A stretch of DNA of 64,000 nt, from positions 5,088,001-5,152,000 of the forward strand of contig OZ220741.1 in assembly GCA_965116885.1 (NCBI GenBank). The letters are read 5' to 3'. Shown here in pieces: positions 8,386 to 32,522 of the stretch (position 1 is its first letter; every line of letters starts with the position of its first letter). A program made the translations under genes and the position numbers. This DNA comes from Candidatus Latescibacterota bacterium. Its GTDB lineage: Bacteria; Latescibacterota; UBA2968. The notes beneath the pieces were generated by a model. That model saw only the letters and a program-made list of their open reading frames with translations, ran no database searches and was not told the DNA's origin.

Positions 8386-8422
8386 TATAACTTATTTATG
8401 GCATGTGTGCAAGGTGAAAGAT
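8386..8422. repeat. Left copy of 37-bp imperfect direct repeat (overlaps a putative minus-strand promoter of dtd)
   Basis: tataacttatttatggcatgtgtgcaaggtgaaagat; 32/37 identical to 16125-16161. Minus strand TTGCAC-17 nt-TATAAA. Confidence 0.8.
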
Positions 8423-8506
8423 GTAGGAGGAGTGAAATGTGAAGTTGTCATCGCGGCATGGTGTTGAGCCGCGATCCATTAACGGGAACACAACGAGCCA
8501 AACGGC

Positions 8507-8535
8507 TTGTCTTTTATTTCAGATATTCATATTAT
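8507..8535 (+). promoter_or_regulatory. Putative sigma70 promoter of the RND-P450-SMT unit
   Basis: TTGTCT (8507-8512), 17 nt spacer, TATTAT (8530-8535). Confidence 0.5.
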
Positions 8536-8605
8536 GGACAGCCATAAGATTTTAGAATCTGTTGTAAAACAAATTCTCAGGGTTATTCAGCCTGAATGAG
8601 GAAAA

Positions 8606-11600
8606 ATGAACACAGATGACAATTTCCACGGGGAACGCCCCGGACCGATAGCCTACATGGCTGGCAACAGTGTAGCCGCCAATCTATTGATGTGGGCTAT
8701 CATCGCCGCCGGGCTGGTATCGCTGACCGGACTCGACCGGGAAGCGTGGCCCACCACTCCCTTCTACCATATTGAAGTGTCGATGGCCTATCCCGGCGCC
8801 ACACCGGAGGAGATCGAGGAGTCGATCGTCGTCAAGATCGAAGACCAGGTCAGTGGATTGGATGACGTGAAGGCGGTCAAGTCCGTATCGGCTCCGGGTA
8901 TCGCATCCGTGCGGGTTCAAATGGATTTCGATACGGACATGGCTCGGGCGTTAAACGATATCGAGTCTGCCGTCAATCGCATACAGTCTTTCCCTGCCAG
9001 TGCCGAACGTCCCAGTTTCAAGGAGATGACCAACCGCATGAGCATGATGCGACTCATTGTTTATGGCGATGTGCCCGAGCGTGCGCTGAAGGAATTGGCG
9101 TATCAGATCAAGGATGAACTCACGGCTCTTCCCTCCGTCTCCCAGGTCGAGGTCAGCGGTATTCGGAAATACGAGATCTCTATCGAGGTACCGCTTCATC
9201 GGCTAAGAGCACTTGGACTCACCCTCACCGACATAGCCAACACGATTCGTCGCAGTTCCCTGGACTTGTCTGCCGGCAGTATCAATACCCGGGAATCCCA
9301 GGTGCGGGTCAGGACCCTGGGGCAGAACTACGACCAACAGGATTTCGAAGATATCGTCCTTCTCAGCAGCAGCGATGGCACAGTCCTGCGGCTTGGCGAT
9401 ATCGCCGAGGTTCGCGACGGCTTTCAGGAAACCGACCTGATTGTCCGGCACCAAAATCATCCCGCTGTGTTCGTCGAGGTCTTCCGGGCCGATGGTGAGC
9501 AAGTGATGGATGTCGCCACGACCGTTCGGGAGCACCTGGCGAACGAGGTGATCCCGTCCCTGCCCGACGAGGTGGGCGTCAGCATGTGGAATGACGAATC
9601 CCAGGTCTATGAGGAACGCGCCGATCTTCTCCTCAAGAACGGTATTCTGGGCCTGTTGCTGGTCTTGATCGCCCTGAGCCTGTTTCTCGAAATCCGGCTC
9701 GCGCTTTGGGTCGCCGTGGGCCTCGCCGTTTCGGGAATCGGCGCCCTCGCCATCATGATGGCATTCGACGTGGCGATCAACACCATCAGCCTGTTCTCCT
9801 TTGTCCTCGCCATAGGAATCATCGTCGACGATGCCATCGTCGTGGCCGAGCACATTCAATACGAACGCAAGCGGGGAACACCCGGAGTCACGGCCGCGAT
9901 TCGCGGCGTACGGCGGATCAAGGTGCCGTTGACGTTCGCAGTTCTGACGTCGGTGGTGGCCTTCGTCCCGTTGCTGTTCATTCCCGGCGGCGTCGGTGAG
10001 GTGTGGCGGGCCCTGCCGATCATCATGATCGCCATGCTGCTGGTTTCCCTGGTCGAATCGCTGCTGGTGCTGCCCAACCATCTGTCCCACCTGCACGGCC
10101 CGGAGTGGGTGCCGGCCAATGCCTTCGACCGGTTCTTCGCGCGGCTCCAAGGGCGCGTTGACGCGCTGCTGAACAGGTTCGTCCAAGGCCCGCTGGACCG
10201 GGCCCTGCAGTTCGCCACCGACCAGCCCGCGGTGACGATGTCGGGGGCTGTGGGAATGCTCGTGCTGAGCATCTCCCTATTGCCCGCGGGAATCGTTCCT
10301 ACCACGCTGGCCGCTGACGTGGAGGGGGATATCGCGACGGTCGTCCTGGAGATGCCCGATGGGGCGACCGCTCCGAGGACGTACGAAGTGGCCCAGGAAC
10401 TGGAGGCCGCCGGCCACCGGGTCATCGAACGACTCTCGCGCGACCGGCCCGGGGACGCGCCACCGCTGCTGACCGGCGTAACGGTGACCGTCGGACAGGG
10501 CTCGAGACTCGCGGGCGGGCTCAATCCGGAGCCGACCCTCAATCCGCAAGCCAACATCGCCACCATTGAGTTCAAACTCCTGGGCGCCCAACAGAGAGAA
10601 ATCTCCACCGGAGAGGTCGTGCAGGCATGGCGGGAAGAGGTGGGGGTGCTGCCCTACGTACGCGGCATCACCTTCAGCGGCGAGGCCTTCGACTTGGGCA
10701 ACCCGGTGGAGGTTGTGTTGTCGCATCCGGACCCGGAGCACCTTGCCCGGATTGCAAACTCCGTGGTCAATGGACTCCGCGGGGTGGGAGGCGTTTTCGA
10801 CATACGTTCAGACCACACCCCGGGCATCCCGGAAGTTCAACTCGGGTTGCGGCCAGAAGCGCGAACCCTCGGTCTCACACTCGACGATCTGGCCGGGCAG
10901 GCGCGAGCCGCATTCTTCGGCGCAGAGGCCATCCGGATACAGCGCGGTCGGGAGGAGGTCCGGGTCTATGTGCGCCTGCCCTCCGATGAACGAAAATCCA
11001 TCACCGATGTCGAAGGATACCTGCTCCGTACGCCGGGCGGGGCCGAGGTCCCGGTCCTGAGTGTGGCCTCCCTGAACCCGGGGGTGTCGCCGCCGGCCAT
11101 TCGACGGAAGGACGGCCAGCGCGTCGTCACGGTCACTGCGGACGTGGATGCTTCGGTGATTTCAGGCGACGAAGCCAACGACATCCTGACCAATTCGATC
11201 CTCGCGGATTTGACCACCCTGCACCCGGACCTGACATACAGCTTCGGAGGGGAACAACAACAGCAGCTCGAATCCCTGGATGCGCTGTATCGCGGATTTG
11301 CGATTGCCCTGCTCTTGATCTTCGCGCTGCTCGCCATCCCCCTCCGATCCTATACAAAGCCGTTCATCATCATGGCCGTCATCCCCTTCGGGTTCATCGG
11401 AGTGATCCTGGGGCACTGGGTCCTGGGAGTAGCTCTGAGTGCCGTATCTTTCATGGGTATCTTCGGCCTGAGTGGGGTGGTCGTGAACGATTCCCTGGTC
11501 ATGATCGATTTCATCGATCAGAGAATCGGAGAAGGTACCTTGGCAAGGACGGCGATCGTGGAGGGCGCCAAGGGGCGCTTTCGTCCGATCATGCTCACTT

Positions 11601-11800
11601 CCGTGACTACGTTCCTCGGCTTCACTCCCCTTATTCTGGAACGCGCCATCCAAGCCCAGTTCCTGATCCCCTTTGCCGCCTCGCTCGGTTGCGGCATTCT
11701 CTTTACTACGGCTATACTCATGATGATCGTTCCCGCACTTTACACCATCCATCTGCGTCTGATTGCTTCGCGGGGCCGTTCCGGCGCCGGTACCGGGTAA
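8606..11800 (+). CDS. RND transporter permease subunit (AcrB/AcrD/AcrF family)
   Basis: 1064 aa; YPGATPEEIEESIV, TM4 GIIVDDAIVVAEHI, TM10 GVVVNDSLVMIDFI, RFRPIMLTSVTT. Confidence 0.93.
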   Translation: MNTDDNFHGERPGPIAYMAGNSVAANLLMWAIIAAGLVSLTGLDREAWPTTPFYHIEVSMAYPGATPEEIEESIVVKIEDQVSGLDDVKAVKSVSAPGIASVRVQMDFDTDMARALNDIESAVNRIQSFPASAERPSFKEMTNRMSMMRLIVYGDVPERALKELAYQIKDELTALPSVSQVEVSGIRKYEISIEVPLHRLRALGLTLTDIANTIRRSSLDLSAGSINTRESQVRVRTLGQNYDQQDFEDIVLLSSSDGTVLRLGDIAEVRDGFQETDLIVRHQNHPAVFVEVFRADGEQVMDVATTVREHLANEVIPSLPDEVGVSMWNDESQVYEERADLLLKNGILGLLLVLIALSLFLEIRLALWVAVGLAVSGIGALAIMMAFDVAINTISLFSFVLAIGIIVDDAIVVAEHIQYERKRGTPGVTAAIRGVRRIKVPLTFAVLTSVVAFVPLLFIPGGVGEVWRALPIIMIAMLLVSLVESLLVLPNHLSHLHGPEWVPANAFDRFFARLQGRVDALLNRFVQGPLDRALQFATDQPAVTMSGAVGMLVLSISLLPAGIVPTTLAADVEGDIATVVLEMPDGATAPRTYEVAQELEAAGHRVIERLSRDRPGDAPPLLTGVTVTVGQGSRLAGGLNPEPTLNPQANIATIEFKLLGAQQREISTGEVVQAWREEVGVLPYVRGITFSGEAFDLGNPVEVVLSHPDPEHLARIANSVVNGLRGVGGVFDIRSDHTPGIPEVQLGLRPEARTLGLTLDDLAGQARAAFFGAEAIRIQRGREEVRVYVRLPSDERKSITDVEGYLLRTPGGAEVPVLSVASLNPGVSPPAIRRKDGQRVVTVTADVDASVISGDEANDILTNSILADLTTLHPDLTYSFGGEQQQQLESLDALYRGFAIALLLIFALLAIPLRSYTKPFIIMAVIPFGFIGVILGHWVLGVALSAVSFMGIFGLSGVVVNDSLVMIDFIDQRIGEGTLARTAIVEGAKGRFRPIMLTSVTTFLGFTPLILERAIQAQFLIPFAASLGCGILFTTAILMMIVPALYTIHLRLIASRGRSGAGTG

Positions 11801-11831
11801 TGCACTTCATGATGCAGGGAGGCAGAAACCG

Positions 11832-13865
11832 ATGGCTAATAATACCGAGGATTTGACGCCCCAATCGCTAAGTCTCACCGAAGAGCTCATCCTGATGCTC
11901 CTCAACGAGGAGACTGGCTACTTTCACCAGGTACCCGGCTGGCATTTGAACTGCGCCGTGGTCGGTGCCGTGCTCGCGGAGCTTTCACTCAGATCGCGCA
12001 TCGACACGGACCTGGAATCCCTGTTCCTCGTGGACGAGTCGGAAACGGGGAGACCTACCCTGGACCCCATTCTGAAAGAAATCGCAGCCGAATCTGTTCA
12101 ACGGAACGCCCAGTACTGGATCGAACGGCTCGCTCCCCGTGCGGAATCGATCATTGATTCAGTTCTGGACCGCCTGGTTGACCTGAAGATCCTGGAATAT
12201 CACGACGGTGAATTCTGGACACTGGCTCCTACCGTCTGGCGTGGGGAACTGTCCAGCAAGTCGGAAGAGGGCACTGCAGGCCAGTTCATAAAAACGCGGA
12301 TCAGCAAGGTCATCTTCACCGACGAGATTCCCGATCCGAGAGATGTCATCATTATCTGCCTCGTCAATACCTGCGATGTCTTTCGTTTCATATTCCAGCT
12401 CGACGACGAGGCGGAGGAGCGCATCGAGTTCATCTGCAAGATGGATCTGATCGGCCGCTCCCTGGCCTCTGCGGTCTCTCAGAACCTCGCTGGCCCAGCC
12501 CTCCGACGTCCTGCCCTTGCCAGAAAAATTCCGACGGTTTCGCTGCCCAAGCTGCTGCTGAACCCGCATAGTCGAGACGGCAACCTGAACGCGCTCTTCG
12601 GAAACCTTGCAGAGGAGTACGGTCCGGTGTTCCAGATCCGCCCTCCCTTCTCGAAGCCCATGATCTTCCTGGCCGGGCTCGAGACAAACCGCTGGGTGCA
12701 CAAGCGCGGGCGCATGTACCTGAGAGCCAGGGACTACTTCAGCGACTTCGAGAAGGTCTACGGCGCGTCCGGCGTCCTGCCCGCCCTGGACGGAGCCGAT
12801 CACTTCCGGCTTCGCCGGTCCCTGTCGCCCGCCTATTCTGCCGTGAGGCTGGGAGGGCAACTGGACCAGCTCTACAATCAGGGGCGCAAGTACATGGCGA
12901 GCTTGACTGTTGGGGACTCATACCGCGCCACGTCCATGTGCCGGGAGATGGTGAACGCCCAGCTCTCCCCACTGTTCATCGGCGTCGATACCCAGGACCT
13001 CATGGACGACCTGATGGCGTACAAGGAACGGGCCCTCAGCGTTCACGTCGCCAAGCTCCTGCCCAGATTCACGCTGAACACCCCGGGCATGAGACGCCGG
13101 GCTAAAGCCCTGGACACACTGATGCAGCGGGTCCAGGACATCCATACCCCTGCCCAACGGGCGGACAGCCCGCGGGACCTGGTGGACGATTACCTCAGCC
13201 TGCACGCGAGCGACCCGCAGTTTCTCCCAGAGTCCAACCTGCTGTTCTCCTTTTCCGCGGCCTTGATTGCCAGCGTGTACCTCGGCGATACGTTCAGCCT
13301 CGTAGTCTATGCCATGGTGTCGCAGCCCGACCTCTACGCCAGAATCCAGGCCGAAGCAGATGCCCTGTTCGCCAAGGGAGACCCCGAGAGAGAGGATTTC
13401 ACCCCCGCCAACATTGACGTTACCCACCGCTTCCTCATGGAGTGCATGCGCATGTACCCGATCGTCTCCATGTCCATTCGGAACGTGATGAATACGTGCG
13501 TGGTCGAGGACTACGAGCTGCCCATGGGGGAACGGATCCACATCGCCATGACCGCCACGCATTACATGAGCGAGGTCTTTCCCGACCCCTACAAGTTCGA
13601 CATCGACCGCTACCTGCCGTCGCGCCATGAGCATCGCAGCCCCGGGTACGCCCCGTACGGGCTGGGCACGCACAAGTGTCTCGGCACCCGGTGGATGGAG
13701 CTGCACCTGGCGGCCAACTTGTTGATGCTGGCGCACTACTTCACGATTGAGGTGTCGCCGGCGAAGTACAAGCACAAGCTCCGTTTCAGTCCGTTCCCGT
13801 CGCTGAAACCGAGCAAGAAGCTGAAGTTCCGCATCTCCCAGCAGAGACGGGAGCTGTTCACCTGA
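11832..13865 (+). CDS. GOLPH3/Vps74 (GPP34)-like domain fused to cytochrome P450
   Basis: RBS GGGAGG before ATG 11832. N-terminal 'LSLTEELILMLLNEETG...AVVGAVLAELSLRSRI...LDRLVDLKIL' resembles GPP34. C-terminal P450 has ExxR (MECMRMYP), 'FPDPYKFDIDRY' and the heme motif PYGLGTHKCLG. Confidence 0.85.
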   Translation: MANNTEDLTPQSLSLTEELILMLLNEETGYFHQVPGWHLNCAVVGAVLAELSLRSRIDTDLESLFLVDESETGRPTLDPILKEIAAESVQRNAQYWIERLAPRAESIIDSVLDRLVDLKILEYHDGEFWTLAPTVWRGELSSKSEEGTAGQFIKTRISKVIFTDEIPDPRDVIIICLVNTCDVFRFIFQLDDEAEERIEFICKMDLIGRSLASAVSQNLAGPALRRPALARKIPTVSLPKLLLNPHSRDGNLNALFGNLAEEYGPVFQIRPPFSKPMIFLAGLETNRWVHKRGRMYLRARDYFSDFEKVYGASGVLPALDGADHFRLRRSLSPAYSAVRLGGQLDQLYNQGRKYMASLTVGDSYRATSMCREMVNAQLSPLFIGVDTQDLMDDLMAYKERALSVHVAKLLPRFTLNTPGMRRRAKALDTLMQRVQDIHTPAQRADSPRDLVDDYLSLHASDPQFLPESNLLFSFSAALIASVYLGDTFSLVVYAMVSQPDLYARIQAEADALFAKGDPEREDFTPANIDVTHRFLMECMRMYPIVSMSIRNVMNTCVVEDYELPMGERIHIAMTATHYMSEVFPDPYKFDIDRYLPSRHEHRSPGYAPYGLGTHKCLGTRWMELHLAANLLMLAHYFTIEVSPAKYKHKLRFSPFPSLKPSKKLKFRISQQRRELFT

Positions 13866-13906
13866 CGACTTGGCTCCTTGTGGAGCCAGGGGGGAAATAC
13901 CACGAA

Positions 13907-14941
13907 ATGCGGCTGTGCAAACTATCGAGAGAGCTGAGAGATGCGTACCGGGAATCGGACGTCGCACGTCGAGTGCAGCACTTCGACGGCTGGCTCGACC
14001 GGGCGGCGCTGGAGCCCGGTGGCGCGGGCGGGTACGATCACACGGAAACAGTGAAAGACTATTACGACCTTTGCAGCGGGTTCATGGTGTGGGGCTGGGG
14101 CCAGTCCCTGCACTTCGCGCCCCTCACGCCTCATGAGAGTCTGGAGGAGTCCAAGATCCGGCATCAGCGGCTGATGATTTCCAAGTTGGAACTGCAACAG
14201 GGTATGACGGTGATCGACGTTGGTTGTGGAGTCGGCGCCCCCATGCGCCGCGTCGTCCGTGAGGCTGGTGTCAGGGTTGTAGGAATCAACATCAATGAGA
14301 TCCAGTTGGAAGAGGCGAAGAGGTTGAACGCCGAGGCGGGGCTTGATCACATGGTCGATTTCGAGACGTGCAGCTTCATAGACATGAGCACCATCGAGGA
14401 CGGCACCTTCGACCGGGGTTATGCCATAGAGTCAACGTGCCATGCACCGGACAAGCAACGCGCCTTCGAGGAGGTATTCCGCGTACTGAAACCCGGTGCC
14501 CTGTTCTGGGGGCAGGAAATGTGTCTGACGGGCAAGTTCGATCCGAAGGACGACCGGCATCGGGCCATCAAGGAGGATCTCATGCGCGGCATTGCGCTGA
14601 AGGACATCGCCACCTTCGGGGAAGTGAATCACGCGCTCGAAGCCGCGGGATTCCAAGTCATGGAAGGGATGGACCGGGCGATCCAGGAAGGACCCTCCAC
14701 ACCTTGGTATCAACCCATGGAGAATCGCCATGGGACGGTCGGAAACGCCTTGCGCAGGCTTCCGTGGGGTCGTAAAGCCGTCATCACAGGATCGAAGCTG
14801 GCTGAAGTACTGCGGCTTTTTCCGAAGGGCTCCGCGGAAGTCATCCGACTCCTGGATCGGACCGCGGAGGCTTATATCGCGGGCGGCAAGGCGGGTATCT
14901 TTACGCCGCTGTACTGTTTCTTGGCTCGCAGGCCTCTTTAG
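13907..14941 (+). CDS. Sterol 24-C-methyltransferase (ERG6/SMT-like); alternative GTG start at 13880
   Basis: SMT region I YYDL...WGWGQSLHFAP, SAM motif VIDVGCGVGAP, YAIESTCHAP, RVLKPGA, C-terminal GIFTPLYCFLARRP. Confidence 0.88.
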   Translation: MRLCKLSRELRDAYRESDVARRVQHFDGWLDRAALEPGGAGGYDHTETVKDYYDLCSGFMVWGWGQSLHFAPLTPHESLEESKIRHQRLMISKLELQQGMTVIDVGCGVGAPMRRVVREAGVRVVGININEIQLEEAKRLNAEAGLDHMVDFETCSFIDMSTIEDGTFDRGYAIESTCHAPDKQRAFEEVFRVLKPGALFWGQEMCLTGKFDPKDDRHRAIKEDLMRGIALKDIATFGEVNHALEAAGFQVMEGMDRAIQEGPSTPWYQPMENRHGTVGNALRRLPWGRKAVITGSKLAEVLRLFPKGSAEVIRLLDRTAEAYIAGGKAGIFTPLYCFLARRPL

Positions 14942-14969
14942 GCCCGCCTGGCGCGCCTTCGCGCGGGCC
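14941..14969. terminator. GC-rich hairpin between the convergent SMT and Rieske genes
   Basis: ggcccgc...gcgggcc inverted repeat in the short intergenic gap. Confidence 0.45.
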
Positions 14970-14973
14970 CCTC

Positions 14974-16062
14974 TTAGTCGGAGACCGAGTCCCCACTTCC
15001 CTTCGAAATCGTCGGATCGGGATAGAACTGCCGGCAATACCGGCGGTACTTCCCTATGGGGCCATCTGCCCGACACAGCCTGGGGACAGACCGATACTGC
15101 TTCCTTTCCCAGATCACCACATCCTGCAGGACATCCCGTTTCTGTTGTGACATCAAAATGCGATTCATCAGCCTGTGGCGCAGCATCATCGGCAGAAACC
15201 CCAGACCTGAGATAAATCGCCGGGGCTTGCGGATTTCCCGCATCTGGCTGACCAGTGCAAGATCGATGAGGGTGCCGTCAATGGGGGTTGCGAGTACCCA
15301 CAATCTCGCATTCATATCAATAGTTTTCTCGTGGATCTCGACGAAGGAATAGCCCAGGCCATAGACGTGGGTGATAGCTGAGGTTTCGTACACGAGGTCC
15401 TTTACACCCAGGATCCTGCGAACGCGTTTGAAGTCGAAGCAACTCTTCAAATAGGCACCATCTACCGTTACCGAACCGATCGGATTCACATTGTCGTAAC
15501 CATGCACGTAGCGCAGGTGTCCCAGATCTACAGAGTTCTCTGTGGTTTCCTGGGGATGGCCGCGGAACCGGAGTATGTTGAATCCCAGTTCACCCCACTC
15601 TTGTCCAGTGGTTGGCTCGGCTGGCAAATCCCACTGCGACGGCCGACCGCCGCTCCCGAACCAGGCGAAGACCATGCCGAGAATCTCTCTGGTCTCATAT
15701 ACCTTCAGTTTCGCGGCTCTGGGTGCCGGGGCATTCGGCGTCGCAACGCATTGTCCGGTCGTATCGAACTCAAACCCGTGGAACGGACAAACGAGCCGAC
15801 CATTGTATATCTTCCCACCGACCTCCGGCCCCAGGTGCGAACCCAGGTGCGGACATACCGCGTCGGCCACGCAGACACGGCCTGCATCGTCGCACCAGAC
15901 AACGATTTCTTCGCCCAGCCACGTCTTCTCGATCAGTTTCTCTCGCAGAACGGATTCGCGGCTTGCGACGAAATACCACCCCTCGGGGAAAGGCGGTAGC
16001 GCATCAGCGACATTCCTGATCCGTCGATTAGTTCGCAAGCCTGCTGATTCCGTCAAAGACAT
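14974..16062 (-). CDS. Rieske [2Fe-2S] sterol oxygenase/desaturase (Neverland/DAF-36/KshA-like)
   Basis: FPEGWYFV, CPHLG...CPFHGFEFD, mononuclear-iron motif ENSVDLGHLRYVH, C-terminal DVVIWERKQY...P.LC..DGPI..YRR...QFY. Confidence 0.85.
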   Translation of the reverse strand: MSLTESAGLRTNRRIRNVADALPPFPEGWYFVASRESVLREKLIEKTWLGEEIVVWCDDAGRVCVADAVCPHLGSHLGPEVGGKIYNGRLVCPFHGFEFDTTGQCVATPNAPAPRAAKLKVYETREILGMVFAWFGSGGRPSQWDLPAEPTTGQEWGELGFNILRFRGHPQETTENSVDLGHLRYVHGYDNVNPIGSVTVDGAYLKSCFDFKRVRRILGVKDLVYETSAITHVYGLGYSFVEIHEKTIDMNARLWVLATPIDGTLIDLALVSQMREIRKPRRFISGLGFLPMMLRHRLMNRILMSQQKRDVLQDVVIWERKQYRSVPRLCRADGPIGKYRRYCRQFYPDPTISKGSGDSVSD

Positions 16063-16124: not shown

Positions 16125-16161
16125 TATAAGCTATTTACGGCAGGTGGGCAAGGTGAAAGAT
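16125..16161. repeat. Right copy of 37-bp imperfect direct repeat
   Basis: tataagctatttacggcaggtgggcaaggtgaaagat; abuts the stop codon of the lptD-like gene (16163). Minus strand TTGCCC-17 nt-TATAGG faces the Rieske gene. Confidence 0.8.
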
Positions 16162-18712: not shown

Positions 18713-18799
18713 GCGGACGTGGTGGAATTGGCAGACACGCCAGATTTAGGATCTGGTGGGGTAAAACCCGTGGGGGTTCGAGTCCCCCCGTCCGCACCA
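18713..18799 (+). tRNA. tRNA-Leu (anticodon TAG)
   Basis: GCGGACG acceptor stem, D-loop GGAATTGGCAGAC, anticodon arm CCAGA-TTTAGGA-TCTGG, long variable arm, GGTTCGAGTCC, CCA end. Confidence 0.97.
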
Positions 18800-31140: not shown

Positions 31141-32364
31141 TCATGGATCACCTCTAACCGCAGTCTGCACCACCATGCCTTCAGTTGCAAACTGAATCCC
31201 GCCTATGACGACCGCCTGTCCGGCTTCCAGAGTGCCGGTTACGAACACCTTATCATCGGAACGCTGAAGGACGCGCACCGGGACGATGGTCAATAGTTTG
31301 TCATCGCGCACTGCCCAAATCTCGTTGCCTGGCCTGAGTGCTGACCGTCGCAAGATGAAGTACCGGTCTGGGATGATCCCCTCAATTCGTACTTTCACAA
31401 ACTTACCCACAAGAAGGGGCGGGCCAGGATCAGCATTTGCATCATCGCCATCTGCTCCAGCCCAGGTGCCGCTTGCAAAGGGGTCCGGAACGCGTACGAT
31501 AGCGTTGATGGTACGCGTCTGTTCGTCCAGAGATGCCTCCGCTCGGTCCACGTAGCCCTCCCAGGCGTAGCTCCTTTCGCCGTATTCAGCAATGACGCGA
31601 GCCTTGACCCGCCTGTCTCCGTCGCCCGCTTCCAACTCCCATAGGCCGGGGATGAGAACCGCGTTGGCGTCGGACAGGGGAACCACTACTTCGACAGCGT
31701 CGGCCGCGTAAAGTCGCCCTACGCTCTGGCCAGCTACCACGAATTGCCCCACATCTATCGACTCGATCCGCACGATTCCGCTGAAAGGCGCGCGCACCTC
31801 TGTGCGGGACAAAGCCAACTCAGCGTCAGCGAGCATGGCACTATCTCTGCCTAAAGCGGCTTGGGCAGCCTCGAGCTGAGGCTGCCGCAATACCAGAGGG
31901 CCAGCCTCCTTCAGCGACGTGCTATCCGCCTGACGGCGTTTATATTGCGCGTACTCAGCGCGTGCGATCCGGGACTCTTCCTCCTCCTGGAGAAGTACTA
32001 CCTGCTGTGCGGCCACGTTGGCCTGTGCCTGCTGAACTCTGTTGCGGTAGTCAGCGTCCTCAATGCGGAAGATAACCTGCCCTTTGCGAACGCGTCCGCC
32101 ACTCTGAAAGGCCGGATCCACCCAAACAACCTTACCATTGATTTCGGCAGCGACATCTATCTCTGCGACAGGTCGAACCGTCCCGGCTCCGTACACGGGG
32201 ATTGCACTGGCACCAGCCACTGCAGGAGTTGTGGTTACGAAGGGAATCTGGGTGGGAAGAGGCCGAAGTTCCGGCTCGGGCTTCAGCCAGACCATAAGGC
32301 TGGCAAAAAACAAGGATGTGAGAAGAACGGCACCGGCCATGAGTAAGTTTCTTCCTCGATTCAT
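31141..32364 (-). CDS. RND periplasmic adaptor subunit (membrane fusion protein), orphan
   Basis: N-terminal TM; GTVRP...AEINGKV; helical hairpin; RTEVRAPFSG; IDVGQFV; DEQTRT. GC-rich relative to flanks. ATG 32364 preferred. Confidence 0.9.
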   Translation of the reverse strand: MNRGRNLLMAGAVLLTSLFFASLMVWLKPEPELRPLPTQIPFVTTTPAVAGASAIPVYGAGTVRPVAEIDVAAEINGKVVWVDPAFQSGGRVRKGQVIFRIEDADYRNRVQQAQANVAAQQVVLLQEEEESRIARAEYAQYKRRQADSTSLKEAGPLVLRQPQLEAAQAALGRDSAMLADAELALSRTEVRAPFSGIVRIESIDVGQFVVAGQSVGRLYAADAVEVVVPLSDANAVLIPGLWELEAGDGDRRVKARVIAEYGERSYAWEGYVDRAEASLDEQTRTINAIVRVPDPFASGTWAGADGDDANADPGPPLLVGKFVKVRIEGIIPDRYFILRRSALRPGNEIWAVRDDKLLTIVPVRVLQRSDDKVFVTGTLEAGQAVVIGGIQFATEGMVVQTAVRGDP

Positions 32365-32522
32365 CTCTTTTCTCTTTTCAGTACAGGCTGATTCGATGTG
32401 CGGCTTGGCATTGATAAGCCCCACAAAAAAGGGAATACTTATCCCCATACACCATAGCATACACTTTTACAAAATGCAAGAATTTTTAAATTTGATTAGT
32501 ATTTAGAATATCTTGAGGTTTT

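Follow-up and report, generated by a model that had tools for sequence, protein, structure and literature searches.

A mobile gene cassette of sponge symbionts that probably tailors an external sterol-like lipid and moves it outward

Introduction

The closest described relatives of the system studied here come from sponge symbionts and have been reported separately. The GPP34_L proteins are presented in the main text of one report as exclusive to sponge symbionts, with 656 of 663 long forms combining a GPP34 (GOLPH3-like) domain with a cytochrome P450, and the flanking genes analysed in that text belong to the short form in Actinobacteriota only (PMC11706023). For sterol methyltransferases (SMTs), the available text of a second report gives in vitro methylation of Δ24 sterols by eight of ten sponge-symbiont homologues and by 12 of 14 environmental ones (PMC10070321), while the accessible part of a third describes divergent KshA homologues that are specific to sponge metagenome-assembled genomes (MAGs) and interprets them as catabolic (PMC5790920). 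The present analysis concerns a four-gene cassette that encodes an RND permease, a GPP34-P450 fusion, an SMT-family methyltransferase and a Rieske oxygenase. It lies in a 64-kb stretch (positions 5,088,001 to 5,152,000 of contig OZ220741.1, hereafter the window) of the closed, 98% complete chromosome (5.56 Mb) of a Candidatus Latescibacterota bacterium.

The cassette is a real and transferable unit, specific to sponge symbionts, that spreads horizontally among them. It probably tailors a sterol or sterol-like lipid of external origin, supplied by the host or by sterol-making co-symbionts, and moves the product outward. The observations that carry this reading are the integrity of the genes and the purifying selection on them, the insertion polymorphism of the cassette, its sharing across phyla, the co-occurrence of its enzymes, the exchange of its exporter between host groups and the absence of a cyclase.

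Gene content and insertion of the cassette

All four open reading frames (ORFs) of the cassette are present and intact. The features of the locus, in window coordinates, are as follows.

8386..8422, direct repeat of 37 bp, left copy, adjoining the Dtd start and corresponding to the single copy of empty sites
8423..8605, + strand, cassette leader with a hairpin at 8493-8510 and a weak promoter-like site at 8507-8535
8606..11800, + strand, AcrB-type (HAE1-like) RND permease, 1064 aa (ACR_tran, E 3e-160)
11832..13865, + strand, fusion of GPP34 (GOLPH3-like) and cytochrome P450 domains (GPP34_L), 677 aa (Pfam; longest ORF from 11763)
13880..14941, + strand, SMT-family S-adenosylmethionine (SAM) methyltransferase of a divergent subfamily (Methyltransf_11 and Sterol_MT_C)
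14942..14973, no strand, inverted repeat, GC-rich (GGCCCGC...GCGGGCC), in the gap that separates the stop codons of the convergent SMT and Rieske genes (read from the sequence)
14974..16062, − strand, Rieske non-haem iron oxygenase with a KshA_C-type catalytic domain, 362 aa (Pfam)
16125..16161, direct repeat of 37 bp, right copy, adjoining the LptD stop; 32 of its 37 positions agree with the left copy
18713-18799, + strand, tRNA-Leu between the genes for LptD and a pyridoxal phosphate-dependent decarboxylase
31165..32364 (ORF 31141-32460), − strand, orphan HlyD-type adaptor (membrane fusion protein, MFP) of the cassette family (HlyD_3 domain)

The cassette stands out by its composition, with a GC content per kb of 0.57-0.66 across 9-16 kb against 0.49-0.51 on either side, and an overall GC of 0.600 against 0.508 in the remaining window and 0.511 in the genome. 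Its flanks are occupied by housekeeping genes, namely those for PriA, RodZ, Maf and Dtd upstream and LptD downstream, as identified with Pfam. The inverted repeat between the SMT and Rieske genes is a possible two-way terminator; it is absent from the output of the terminator scan, and the scan of the locus for promoters and terminators gave nothing above chance, with one promoter-like site against 2.7 expected. All four genes are under purifying selection, with ratios of nonsynonymous to synonymous divergence (dN/dS) of 0.08-0.32 (RND 0.12-0.15, fusion 0.08-0.26, SMT 0.24-0.32, Rieske 0.12-0.21) against 0.08-0.24 for the flanking Maf, Dtd and LptD genes, a range that leaves out LptD against L007 and L031, where the BLAST match is fragmented.

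The insertion is polymorphic within the genus. In five same-genus genomes (G001, G006, G014, G016, G019) the site is empty and the gap between the Dtd and LptD genes is 100-130 bp. The window and five same-genus relatives hold the cassette at exactly this site in three forms, of which the first comprises the MFP, RND, fusion, SMT, flavoenzyme and Rieske genes in that order (L029, L031), the second is the same without the flavoenzyme (L007, L010) and the third is without both flavoenzyme and adaptor (window, L020). The gap between the Dtd and RND genes is 240 bp in the window and L020, and the MFP gene occupies that place in L007, L010, L029 and L031. In alignments with L020 and L007, the part of the leader at about 8480-8550 matches sequence found just ahead of the adaptor gene in relatives, and the adaptor appears to have been deleted from the window copy. 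This copy has the most reduced form, with adaptor and flavoenzyme both lost. No flavoenzyme homologue is present in the window's genome.

The 37-bp repeat occurs in only two copies in the 5.56-Mb genome, both flanking the cassette, and in one copy at the empty sites L090 and L091. Bounded by these repeats (8386-8422 and 16125-16161), the inserted unit is larger than the span of the genes. The right-hand copies in L007 and L020 carry the same kind of variant as the right copy of the window, which suggests that one copy of the repeat arrived with the element. A cassette-type fusion is present in 11 of the 21 genus genomes, and near-identical cassettes (99% fusion identity) lie at other chromosomal sites, e.g., in L009. 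Pfam searches of the 11 flank ORFs at two other insertion sites, L008 and L009, returned no integrase or transposase, and the tRNA-Leu gene of the window is not at the insertion junction. The first-pass annotation, which was made from the sequence alone, had taken the four GC-rich genes to form a single insert. The intact ORFs with their Pfam domains, the GC contrast, the empty sites in five genomes, the flanking repeats and the co-conservation elsewhere all bear this out, and the genes can be regarded as one acquired unit.

Spread across phyla and exchange of parts

The core of the cassette, consisting of the GPP34-P450 fusion, the SMT-family methyltransferase and the KshA_C-type Rieske oxygenase, is found at 60-99% identity in MAGs whose labels name at least seven phyla or classes. 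A protein search returned 2213 relatives of the fusion, of which the best 120 share 75-99% identity and contain both domains without exception, and a scan of genome collections yielded 80 loci with fusions that are 67-99% identical. The record titles of these loci name Latescibacterota, Gemmatimonadota/Palauibacter/Longimicrobiales, Dehalococcoidia/SAR202/Chloroflexota, Binatia, Vicinamibacteria, Rhodothermales and Gammaproteobacteria. Many of the 80 loci are titled as whole chromosomes, so that such copies are not binning artefacts. The GC content of the fusion gene is 0.56-0.63 regardless of that of the host flanks (0.51-0.70).

A tree of 70 fusions resolves into two clades with 100% support each, which correspond to an RND type and a Chloroflexota type. 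One Vicinamibacteria row falls inside Longimicrobiales with 100% support, and the Chloroflexota clade takes in Binatia as well as single rows of Gammaproteobacteria and Latescibacterota. A locus titled Latescibacterota (L083, scaffold_1316) is a mosaic: its fusion is of the Chloroflexota type and 70% identical to that of the window, its RND and Rieske genes are 81-82% identical to those of the window, and its RND, Rieske and flavoenzyme genes together show 81-85% identity to the RND-type queries. At synonymous sites the window and its kin diverge by 0.06-0.19 in the fusion and SMT genes and by 0.14-0.49 in the RND and Rieske genes, which is also consistent with an exchange of parts. Measured against relatives with the cassette at the same site, the two to four times lower divergence of the central fusion-SMT pair hints at a more recent exchange of this pair.

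Conserved neighbours and the type of exporter

Neighbours were counted at the 63 loci with full 10-kb flanks, with a threshold of at least 45% identity over at least half of the query. An SMT gene lies within 10 kb of the fusion at 53 of these loci and a Rieske gene at 56, and both are found together at 47. An LkcE-like flavoenzyme is present at 32 loci, an AcrB-type RND at 28, an MMPL transporter with sterol-sensing/Patched-SSD matches at 30, a HlyD adaptor (MFP) at 24 and a TolC-like outer membrane efflux protein (OEP) at 13. RND and MMPL are mutually exclusive, with MMPL at 30/30 and RND at 0/30 Chloroflexota-labelled loci. A more distant third MMPL/SSD transporter is found at three Binatia-labelled loci and at the Gammaproteobacteria-labelled locus, and an RND-superfamily transporter of some type accompanies the fusion at 62 of the 63 loci. 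The neighbourhood check that had been proposed for the four families thus came out in favour of a conserved set, as the SMT and Rieske genes and a transporter accompany the fusion well beyond the window.

The type of exporter follows the host group. AcrB-type RND permeases are found in Latescibacterota-, Gemmatimonadota-, Rhodothermales- and Acidobacteriota-labelled hosts, and MMPL transporters with a sterol-sensing domain in Chloroflexota- and Binatia-labelled hosts. Among NCBIfam models the Chloroflexota transporter is nearest to HAE3, MMPL and HpnN, all below cut-off, and nine Chloroflexota-labelled loci also hold an LppX_LprAFG lipoprotein and an MFS protein. That the enzymes are kept while the exporter is swapped is consistent with a pathway whose product is moved outward through differing envelopes. 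Six Chloroflexota-labelled loci contain in addition one or two (tandem) sterol reductases of the ERG4/ERG24 family at 4-7 kb from the fusion. These loci (L046, L048, L052, L055, L066, L076) belong to one subclade, with the reductases at about 3.2-6.6 kb in the locus, upstream of the Rieske-fusion-SMT core.

The RND protein of the window is a full-length AcrB-type permease, with the ACR_tran match covering positions 9-1019 of 1021. Its best matches in the PDB are multidrug RND pumps (E 2e-71), and it scores 432 bits against the NCBIfam model RND_permease_2, below the cut-off of 1250. It is the proposed exporter of the modified lipid. An adaptor for it might be provided in trans by the orphan MFP, which is 79% identical to the MFP of the L007 cassette and 72% identical to that of the second MFP-RND pair of the genome. 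The orphan gene sits in a GC spike of 0.588 between the MoaE gene and a DUF2961 gene, 15 kb from the cassette and with no RND gene beside it. The second MFP-RND pair of the genome (L089:5852-14536; G000:C1, ~3.162-3.171 Mb) consists of an RND protein 61% identical to that of the window and an MFP 78% identical to that of the L007 cassette, and is flanked by genes for a P450, an MpaB/Lcp-like oxygenase and a sulfatase.

The presence of such pumps raises the possibility, a rather doubtful one, that the same chemistry serves defence, with membrane-active host sterols or steroidal metabolites being marked and pumped out and neither a useful membrane lipid nor a host-directed product being built. 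AcrB-type pumps are classically detoxifying, the OEP, MFP and RND components counted above make up a complete tripartite efflux pump in fuller cassettes, and the accessory nature of the cassette, with its presence in about half of the genus genomes, would suit a protective function. SAM-dependent C-methylation, however, is unusual for detoxification, and the Chloroflexota-labelled hosts use an HpnN/MmpL-like transporter together with an LppX-like lipoprotein, families that place lipids in the cell envelope. Furthermore, the window copy has lost its adjacent adaptor, yet its enzymes stay under purifying selection.

A divergent methyltransferase of the SMT family

The methyltransferase of the cassette belongs to the SMT family by its Pfam domains (Methyltransf_11 at E 4e-17, CMAS at E 5e-18 and Sterol_MT_C at E 2e-14, with 53.9 bits for the last against a cut-off of 21.7). 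Its motifs are GWGQSLHF and DVGCGVGAP, and the SAM site is intact. The available text of a preprint by Brown & Welander (10.64898/2025.12.19.695621) lists 25 residues common to every functional SMT, including 84-GWGxxFHF-91 and 125-DxGxGxxGP-133, states that seven of 11 SMTs inactive on desmosterol and 24-methylenecholesterol deviate from these residues, and has residue 81 at no more than 5 Å from the docked sterol in each of its eight SMT models.

These positions were surveyed in 54 cassette SMTs, with ERG6 positions mapped by exact motif spacing and ERG6 itself not in the alignment. Met81, Leu89 and Ala218 are each present in 53 of the 54 and Leu219 in 52. Position 78 is Thr in a single protein and otherwise Ser, Asn or Gly, and position 132 is Ala in 13. 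The residues H90, F91, D125, G127, G129, P133, E195 and G217 are invariant, and each of the remaining mapped positions is retained in 52 or more of the 54, except G86 (41) and L341 (37). The conservation of the residue changes, together with the dN/dS range of the gene, indicates a selected and conserved subfamily rather than a decaying gene, and marks the cassette SMT as a non-canonical subfamily with a predicted remodelling of the sterol pocket. Given this departure from the residues of functional enzymes, canonical C-24 methylation cannot be assumed, and another sterol substrate or another position of attack would be as likely. The earlier designation as an ERG6-type SMT therefore holds for the domains and for the retained H90, D125, G129, P133 and E195, and fails for the canonical C-24 type, in view of Met81, Leu89 and the loss of Thr78 (53/54 each).

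The remodelled pocket also bears on the nature of the substrate. The cassette could tailor and export a non-sterol lipid such as a terpenoid of sponge or bacterial origin, a squalene-type hydrocarbon or a polyene chain, for which the SMT would have been recruited to a new substrate. The changes in Region I (Met81, Leu89) and Region IV (Ala218, Leu219), consistent in 52-53 of 54 proteins, would fit such a shift, the more so as residue 81 lies close to the docked sterol in the models of the preprint. The flavoenzyme of fuller cassettes is closest to LkcE (E 2e-29) and distantly related to 2b9w, which is not known as a steroid enzyme, the P450 is without a specific sterol-family assignment, and other P450/RND/oxygenase clusters in the genome look terpenoid-related. 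Against a non-sterol lipid stands the co-occurrence of four mutually independent pointers to sterols, namely Sterol_MT_C, KshA_C, CYP51 as the nearest solved P450 by sequence and by fold (with a small margin) and the ERG4/ERG24 reductases of six loci. In addition, the catalytic His90 and Glu195 of the SMT are invariant, and the carriers inhabit sterol-rich sponge tissue. On balance a non-sterol lipid seems rather unlikely, and a sterol or sterol-like compound is the favoured substrate.

The Rieske oxygenase and steroid breakdown

The fourth protein of the cassette combines a Rieske domain (E 2e-17) with a KshA_C domain at residues 134-347 (E 1.5e-21). Its Rieske ligands CPH...CPFH (CxH...CxxH) and its iron motif ENSVDLGHLRYVH (ExxxDxxHxxxxH) are intact. 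The family is large, with 442 representatives at E ≤1e-30; the names of ten representatives of Rieske relatives are generic only, and one relative with a 290-aa N-terminal extension (P0147) shows no GPP34 match. Identity with SdmA, a bacterial sterol C-4 methyl oxidase, was considered and rejected, as the protein scores 32.7 bits against a cut-off of 600 for the equivalog model NF052579 of NCBIfam. In the ESM Atlas its neighbours are clusters of bacterial proteins that bear the automatic name 'cholesterol 7-desaturase' (score 0.97). The initial label 'Neverland-like' draws only on shared domains and metal motifs and on these automatic cluster names, and is best kept as a lead.

The best PDB match, KshA (4qdc, E 5e-23, phmmer), might indicate that the oxygenase is a 3-ketosteroid 9-alpha-hydroxylase, which would open the steroid nucleus so that host sterols can support growth, in line with the KshA_C domain and with the catabolic interpretation of the sponge-specific KshA homologues mentioned above. 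This alignment is limited, however, to residues 14-187, and the genome encodes no further KshA-like protein. At E ≤0.001 the genome contains no match to an HsaC/BphC-type extradiol dioxygenase (TIGR03213), and its best match to HsaD (TIGR03343) is a generic hydrolase with 37.9 bits against a cut-off of 462. The conserved partners of the oxygenase, a methyltransferase and an exporter, suit tailoring and not breakdown. Steroid catabolism is therefore a most improbable function of the cassette. The expectation that the Rieske enzyme acts outside a degradation pathway is upheld by the lack of HsaC and by an HsaD match that is only generic, kstD and kshB not having been searched. A tailoring oxygenase acting on the ring system is the preferred assignment.

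The GPP34-P450 fusion

In the longest ORF (11763-13865, 700 aa), the GPP34 domain (PF05719) covers residues 38-239 (E 1e-28) and the P450 domain (PF00067) residues 445-687 (E 5e-34). The start is most likely the ATG at 11832, which gives 677 aa, as homologues are 673-686 aa long and mostly 675-677. The ExxR motif and the haem loop GLGTHKCLG of the P450 are intact in the translation. Its best PDB match by sequence is CYP51 of M. capsulatus (E 7e-18), over the C-terminal half only, and the folds nearest to the AlphaFold model of the fusion (pLDDT 73.6) are, according to Foldseek, those of the same enzyme (6mcw and 7snm, 20% identity), a set that includes a lanosterol-bound structure. NCBIfam and the ESM Atlas yield no specific P450 family assignment. 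A CYP51 orthologue was considered and rejected, given the 20% identity, the flat list of P450 matches, the restriction to the C-terminal half and the lack of any NCBIfam P450 equivalog near its cut-off. The earlier suggestion of a C-22 desaturase of the CYP61/CYP710 type has nothing to link it to this protein, whose nearest solved relative is that distant CYP51.

GPP34_L has been interpreted in print as an effector that is secreted, binds phosphatidylinositol-4-phosphate (PtdIns4P) of the host and blocks phagosome maturation, in which case the neighbouring genes would be functionally unrelated. Eukaryotic GOLPH3 and Vps74 bind PtdIns4P, the pocket of Vps74 being formed by W88, R97, K178 and R181, as given in the available text of PMC2806290. 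The restriction of GPP34_L to sponge symbionts and the near-uniform domain pair of its long forms agree with an effector, as does the abundance of eukaryote-like leucine-rich repeat (LRR) proteins in the genome, some of which adjoin a paralogous fusion. In the present alignment, which is weak (E 0.07 for the GPP34 domain against Vps74), the Arg97 column holds V, A, I or S in 72 of 72 aligned fusions and is never basic, the W88 column holds Pro with a Trp two residues on, and K178 and R181 cannot be aligned. Inspection of the translation by eye finds no N-terminal signal sequence, and a P450 requires haem and cytoplasmic reducing partners. Moreover, the fusion travels with both SMT and Rieske genes at most loci and with a transporter at nearly all, an association that lies outside the short-form flanks studied in the main text of the source paper. 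A secreted effector is thus very unlikely for the clade considered here. The partial evidence on the pocket, the conserved neighbours and the needs of the P450 make membrane targeting or lipid presentation the more likely role of the GPP34 domain.

The genome also encodes two paralogous GPP34-P450 fusions that are 35-37% identical to that of the cassette, each directly followed by a Sulfotransfer_3 gene. One (L087:8539-11642; G000:C1, ~600.5-603.6 kb) is surrounded by genes for a methyltransferase, a GFO/IDH/MocA oxidoreductase, a PhyH dioxygenase and a CysQ-like Inositol_P phosphatase, and the other (L088:7162-10295; G000:C1, ~4410-4413 kb) is flanked by large LRR proteins. By gene content, the pairing of fusion and sulfotransferase looks like a hydroxylate-then-sulfate lipid module.

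Source of the substrate and habitat

The closed genome contains no matches to PF13243 (oxidosqualene cyclase, OSC, and squalene-hopene cyclase) or PF08491 (squalene epoxidase), and a cyclase match is found in 0/21 genus genomes. Ten other carriers were checked, by title two Latescibacterota, three Dehalococcoidia and one each of Rhodothermales, Gemmatimonadota, Longimicrobiales, Vicinamibacteria and Binatia. A full-length cyclase is present in two of them, both Dehalococcoidia-labelled, and the one carrier cyclase that was examined has a hopanoid-type neighbourhood, next to genes for a squalene/phytoene synthase, an HpnG-like phosphorylase and a polyprenyl synthase. Squalene epoxidase is absent from four of the five carriers tested and marginal in the fifth, with 20.1 bits, equal to the cut-off. 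With the cyclase missing from most carriers, the ring system would have to be received from outside. The absence of OSC and squalene epoxidase that had been noted for the window extends to the entire closed genome, which is unable to make sterols or hopanoids, and an externally supplied sterol-like substrate combined with transport is still the most economical reading. The further suggestion of an ergosterol-like Δ5,7,22 product is speculation. A contig from the window's family (L096; G024:C410:1-10870) encodes a triterpene cyclase of 655 aa, a GT2 glycosyltransferase, three P450s and an ABC transporter with a cNMP-binding domain, and looks by its gene content like a separate triterpenoid cluster in a related genus.

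The DNA stretch is held by 20 of the 24 listed runs, from 11 studies, and 13 of the 20 are labelled as sponge metagenomes; the record titles of carriers include Candidatus Palauibacter irciniicola and rhopaloidicola. Contigs of RNA libraries from three studies match all four genes, some of them perfectly, and are evidence of presence only. Cassette stretches without RNA-contig cover, and the low cover of LptD, are evidence neither way. The RNA-library contigs of all four runs end loosely at the tRNA-Leu gene, as expected for a conserved and shared tRNA.

Proposed pathway and its significance

From this pattern we infer a sterol as substrate, its supply from outside and an outward transport, with the following order and chemistry as one proposal. 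The sterol would partition into the cytoplasmic membrane of the symbiont and be oxidised there by the signal-less GPP34-P450 protein, whose GPP34 domain would either keep it at the membrane or pass the lipid to it. The KshA_C-type Rieske oxygenase would then hydroxylate or desaturate the ring system, and the divergent SMT would methylate the side chain from SAM. In fuller cassettes the LkcE-like flavoenzyme may add a further step, and the RND-superfamily exporter would finally deliver the product to the outer membrane or out of the cell.

Several points weigh against this pathway. The RND permease of the window is without an adjacent adaptor and outer-membrane factor, and neither RND nor MMPL pumps are sterol-specific. 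The likeness of the P450 to CYP51 is weak and unspecific, with Foldseek E values that change only between 4e-14 and 4e-12 across the first 49 ranks and with P450s as the only matches listed, and its ESM Atlas neighbours are generic P450 clusters; the cassette also holds no ferredoxin or reductase partner. In the SMT of the window, F89 is replaced by Leu, T78 by Ser and G132 by Ala. The titles of MAG records are unreliable, as shown by the 'Gemmatimonadota' RHO1_bin_28, which falls in the window's own order, and the RNA evidence consists of assembled contigs only, with DNA carry-over not excluded.

A bolder version, which we regard as quite unlikely, would have cyclase-less symbionts rewrite the sterols of the sponge or of co-symbionts and return them. 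In that version the SMT would alkylate in a manner that differs from the canonical one, e.g., by methylating a terminal carbon to give 26-methyl sterols or by acting on side chains that already bear an alkyl group, and the GPP34-P450 fusion would serve sterol chemistry and not phosphoinositide mimicry. If this were true, bacteria would co-author the 'sponge-specific' sterols that are used as biomarkers of Neoproterozoic animals. Apart from this version, three separately published signatures of sponge symbionts, the GPP34-P450 proteins, the SMTs and the divergent KshA-like oxygenases, are here joined in one mobile set together with a putative lipid exporter. The set points to symbionts that edit received sterols, which is distinct both from de novo bacterial synthesis and from catabolism, and it offers a testable alternative to the phagocytosis-evasion hypothesis for GPP34_L. 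The SMT subfamily, with a predicted pocket unlike those of all enzymes shown to be active, bears on the unusual sterols of sponges and on the sterane biomarkers of early animals, and the exchange of exporters by host group is an example of a modular and transferable pathway.

Comparison with known systems

The fusion of the window is a member of the GPP34_L family of sponge symbionts (Microbiome 2025;13:4, PMC11706023), with which it shares the two-domain architecture, the habitat and the spread over many phyla. The main text of that paper proposes a secreted PI4P-binding effector, whereas here one GPP34_L clade is embedded in a cassette with SMT, Rieske and exporter genes and one arginine of the pocket is unconserved; a term search of the same main text finds no mention of sterol, methyltransferase or RND. 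No publication uniting GPP34_L with SMT, Rieske or exporter genes was found in the literature searched, a search that subscription journals were mostly outside. The four-gene combination, flagged at the outset as uncharacterised, is so as one cassette in the papers searched, although its parts have each been published (PMC11706023, PMC10070321, PMC5790920).

With the SMTs and de novo clusters of sponge symbionts (Brown et al. 2023, PMC10070321), the cassette shares the Methyltransf_11 and Sterol_MT_C domains, the origin in sponge symbionts and the retained catalytic and SAM residues. The de novo clusters described in the available text hold SMO-OSC, ERG11, ERG24, sdmA and sdmB, whereas the present cassette has none of these and its genome no cyclase, and three supplementary files of that report contain no occurrence of Rieske, P450, Golgi, GPP34, efflux or Latescibacter. 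Compared with the functional SMTs in the available text of the preprint (10.64898/2025.12.19.695621), the cassette enzyme deviates at F89 and T78 and in addition at positions 81, 218 and 219. The ERG24-CYP51-LSS clusters of Ircinia symbionts (Kelly et al. 2022, PMC9531527) are likewise enriched in sponge microbiomes, subject to purifying selection and spread by horizontal transfer over about ten phyla. They are centred on a cyclase and make sterols, whereas the present cassette combines tailoring with export and has no cyclase; in a term search of the main text of that study, Rieske is unmentioned and P450 occurs once.

The Rieske oxygenases KshA, Neverland/DAF-36 and SdmA share with the cassette enzyme the Rieske [2Fe-2S] centre and the non-haem iron motif, the KshA_C domain having been shown for the cassette enzyme and KshA only. 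Only the N-terminal half of the cassette protein aligns with KshA, and the genome is without the seco pathway (HsaC, HsaD). The cassette transporters are of the same families as the HpnN/MmpL and LppX exporters and the tripartite AcrAB-TolC-type pumps, and differ from these in being coupled to sterol-type tailoring enzymes. Conceptually near are also the BstA-C proteins of Methylococcus, which reportedly transport sterols, and the reductases of Coxiella that are said to act on host sterols. While de novo clusters, GPP34_L proteins and sponge-specific KshA homologues were already known, the cassette that brings a GPP34-P450 fusion, a divergent SMT and a Rieske oxygenase together with an exchangeable transporter is a new form among bacterial sterol gene clusters.

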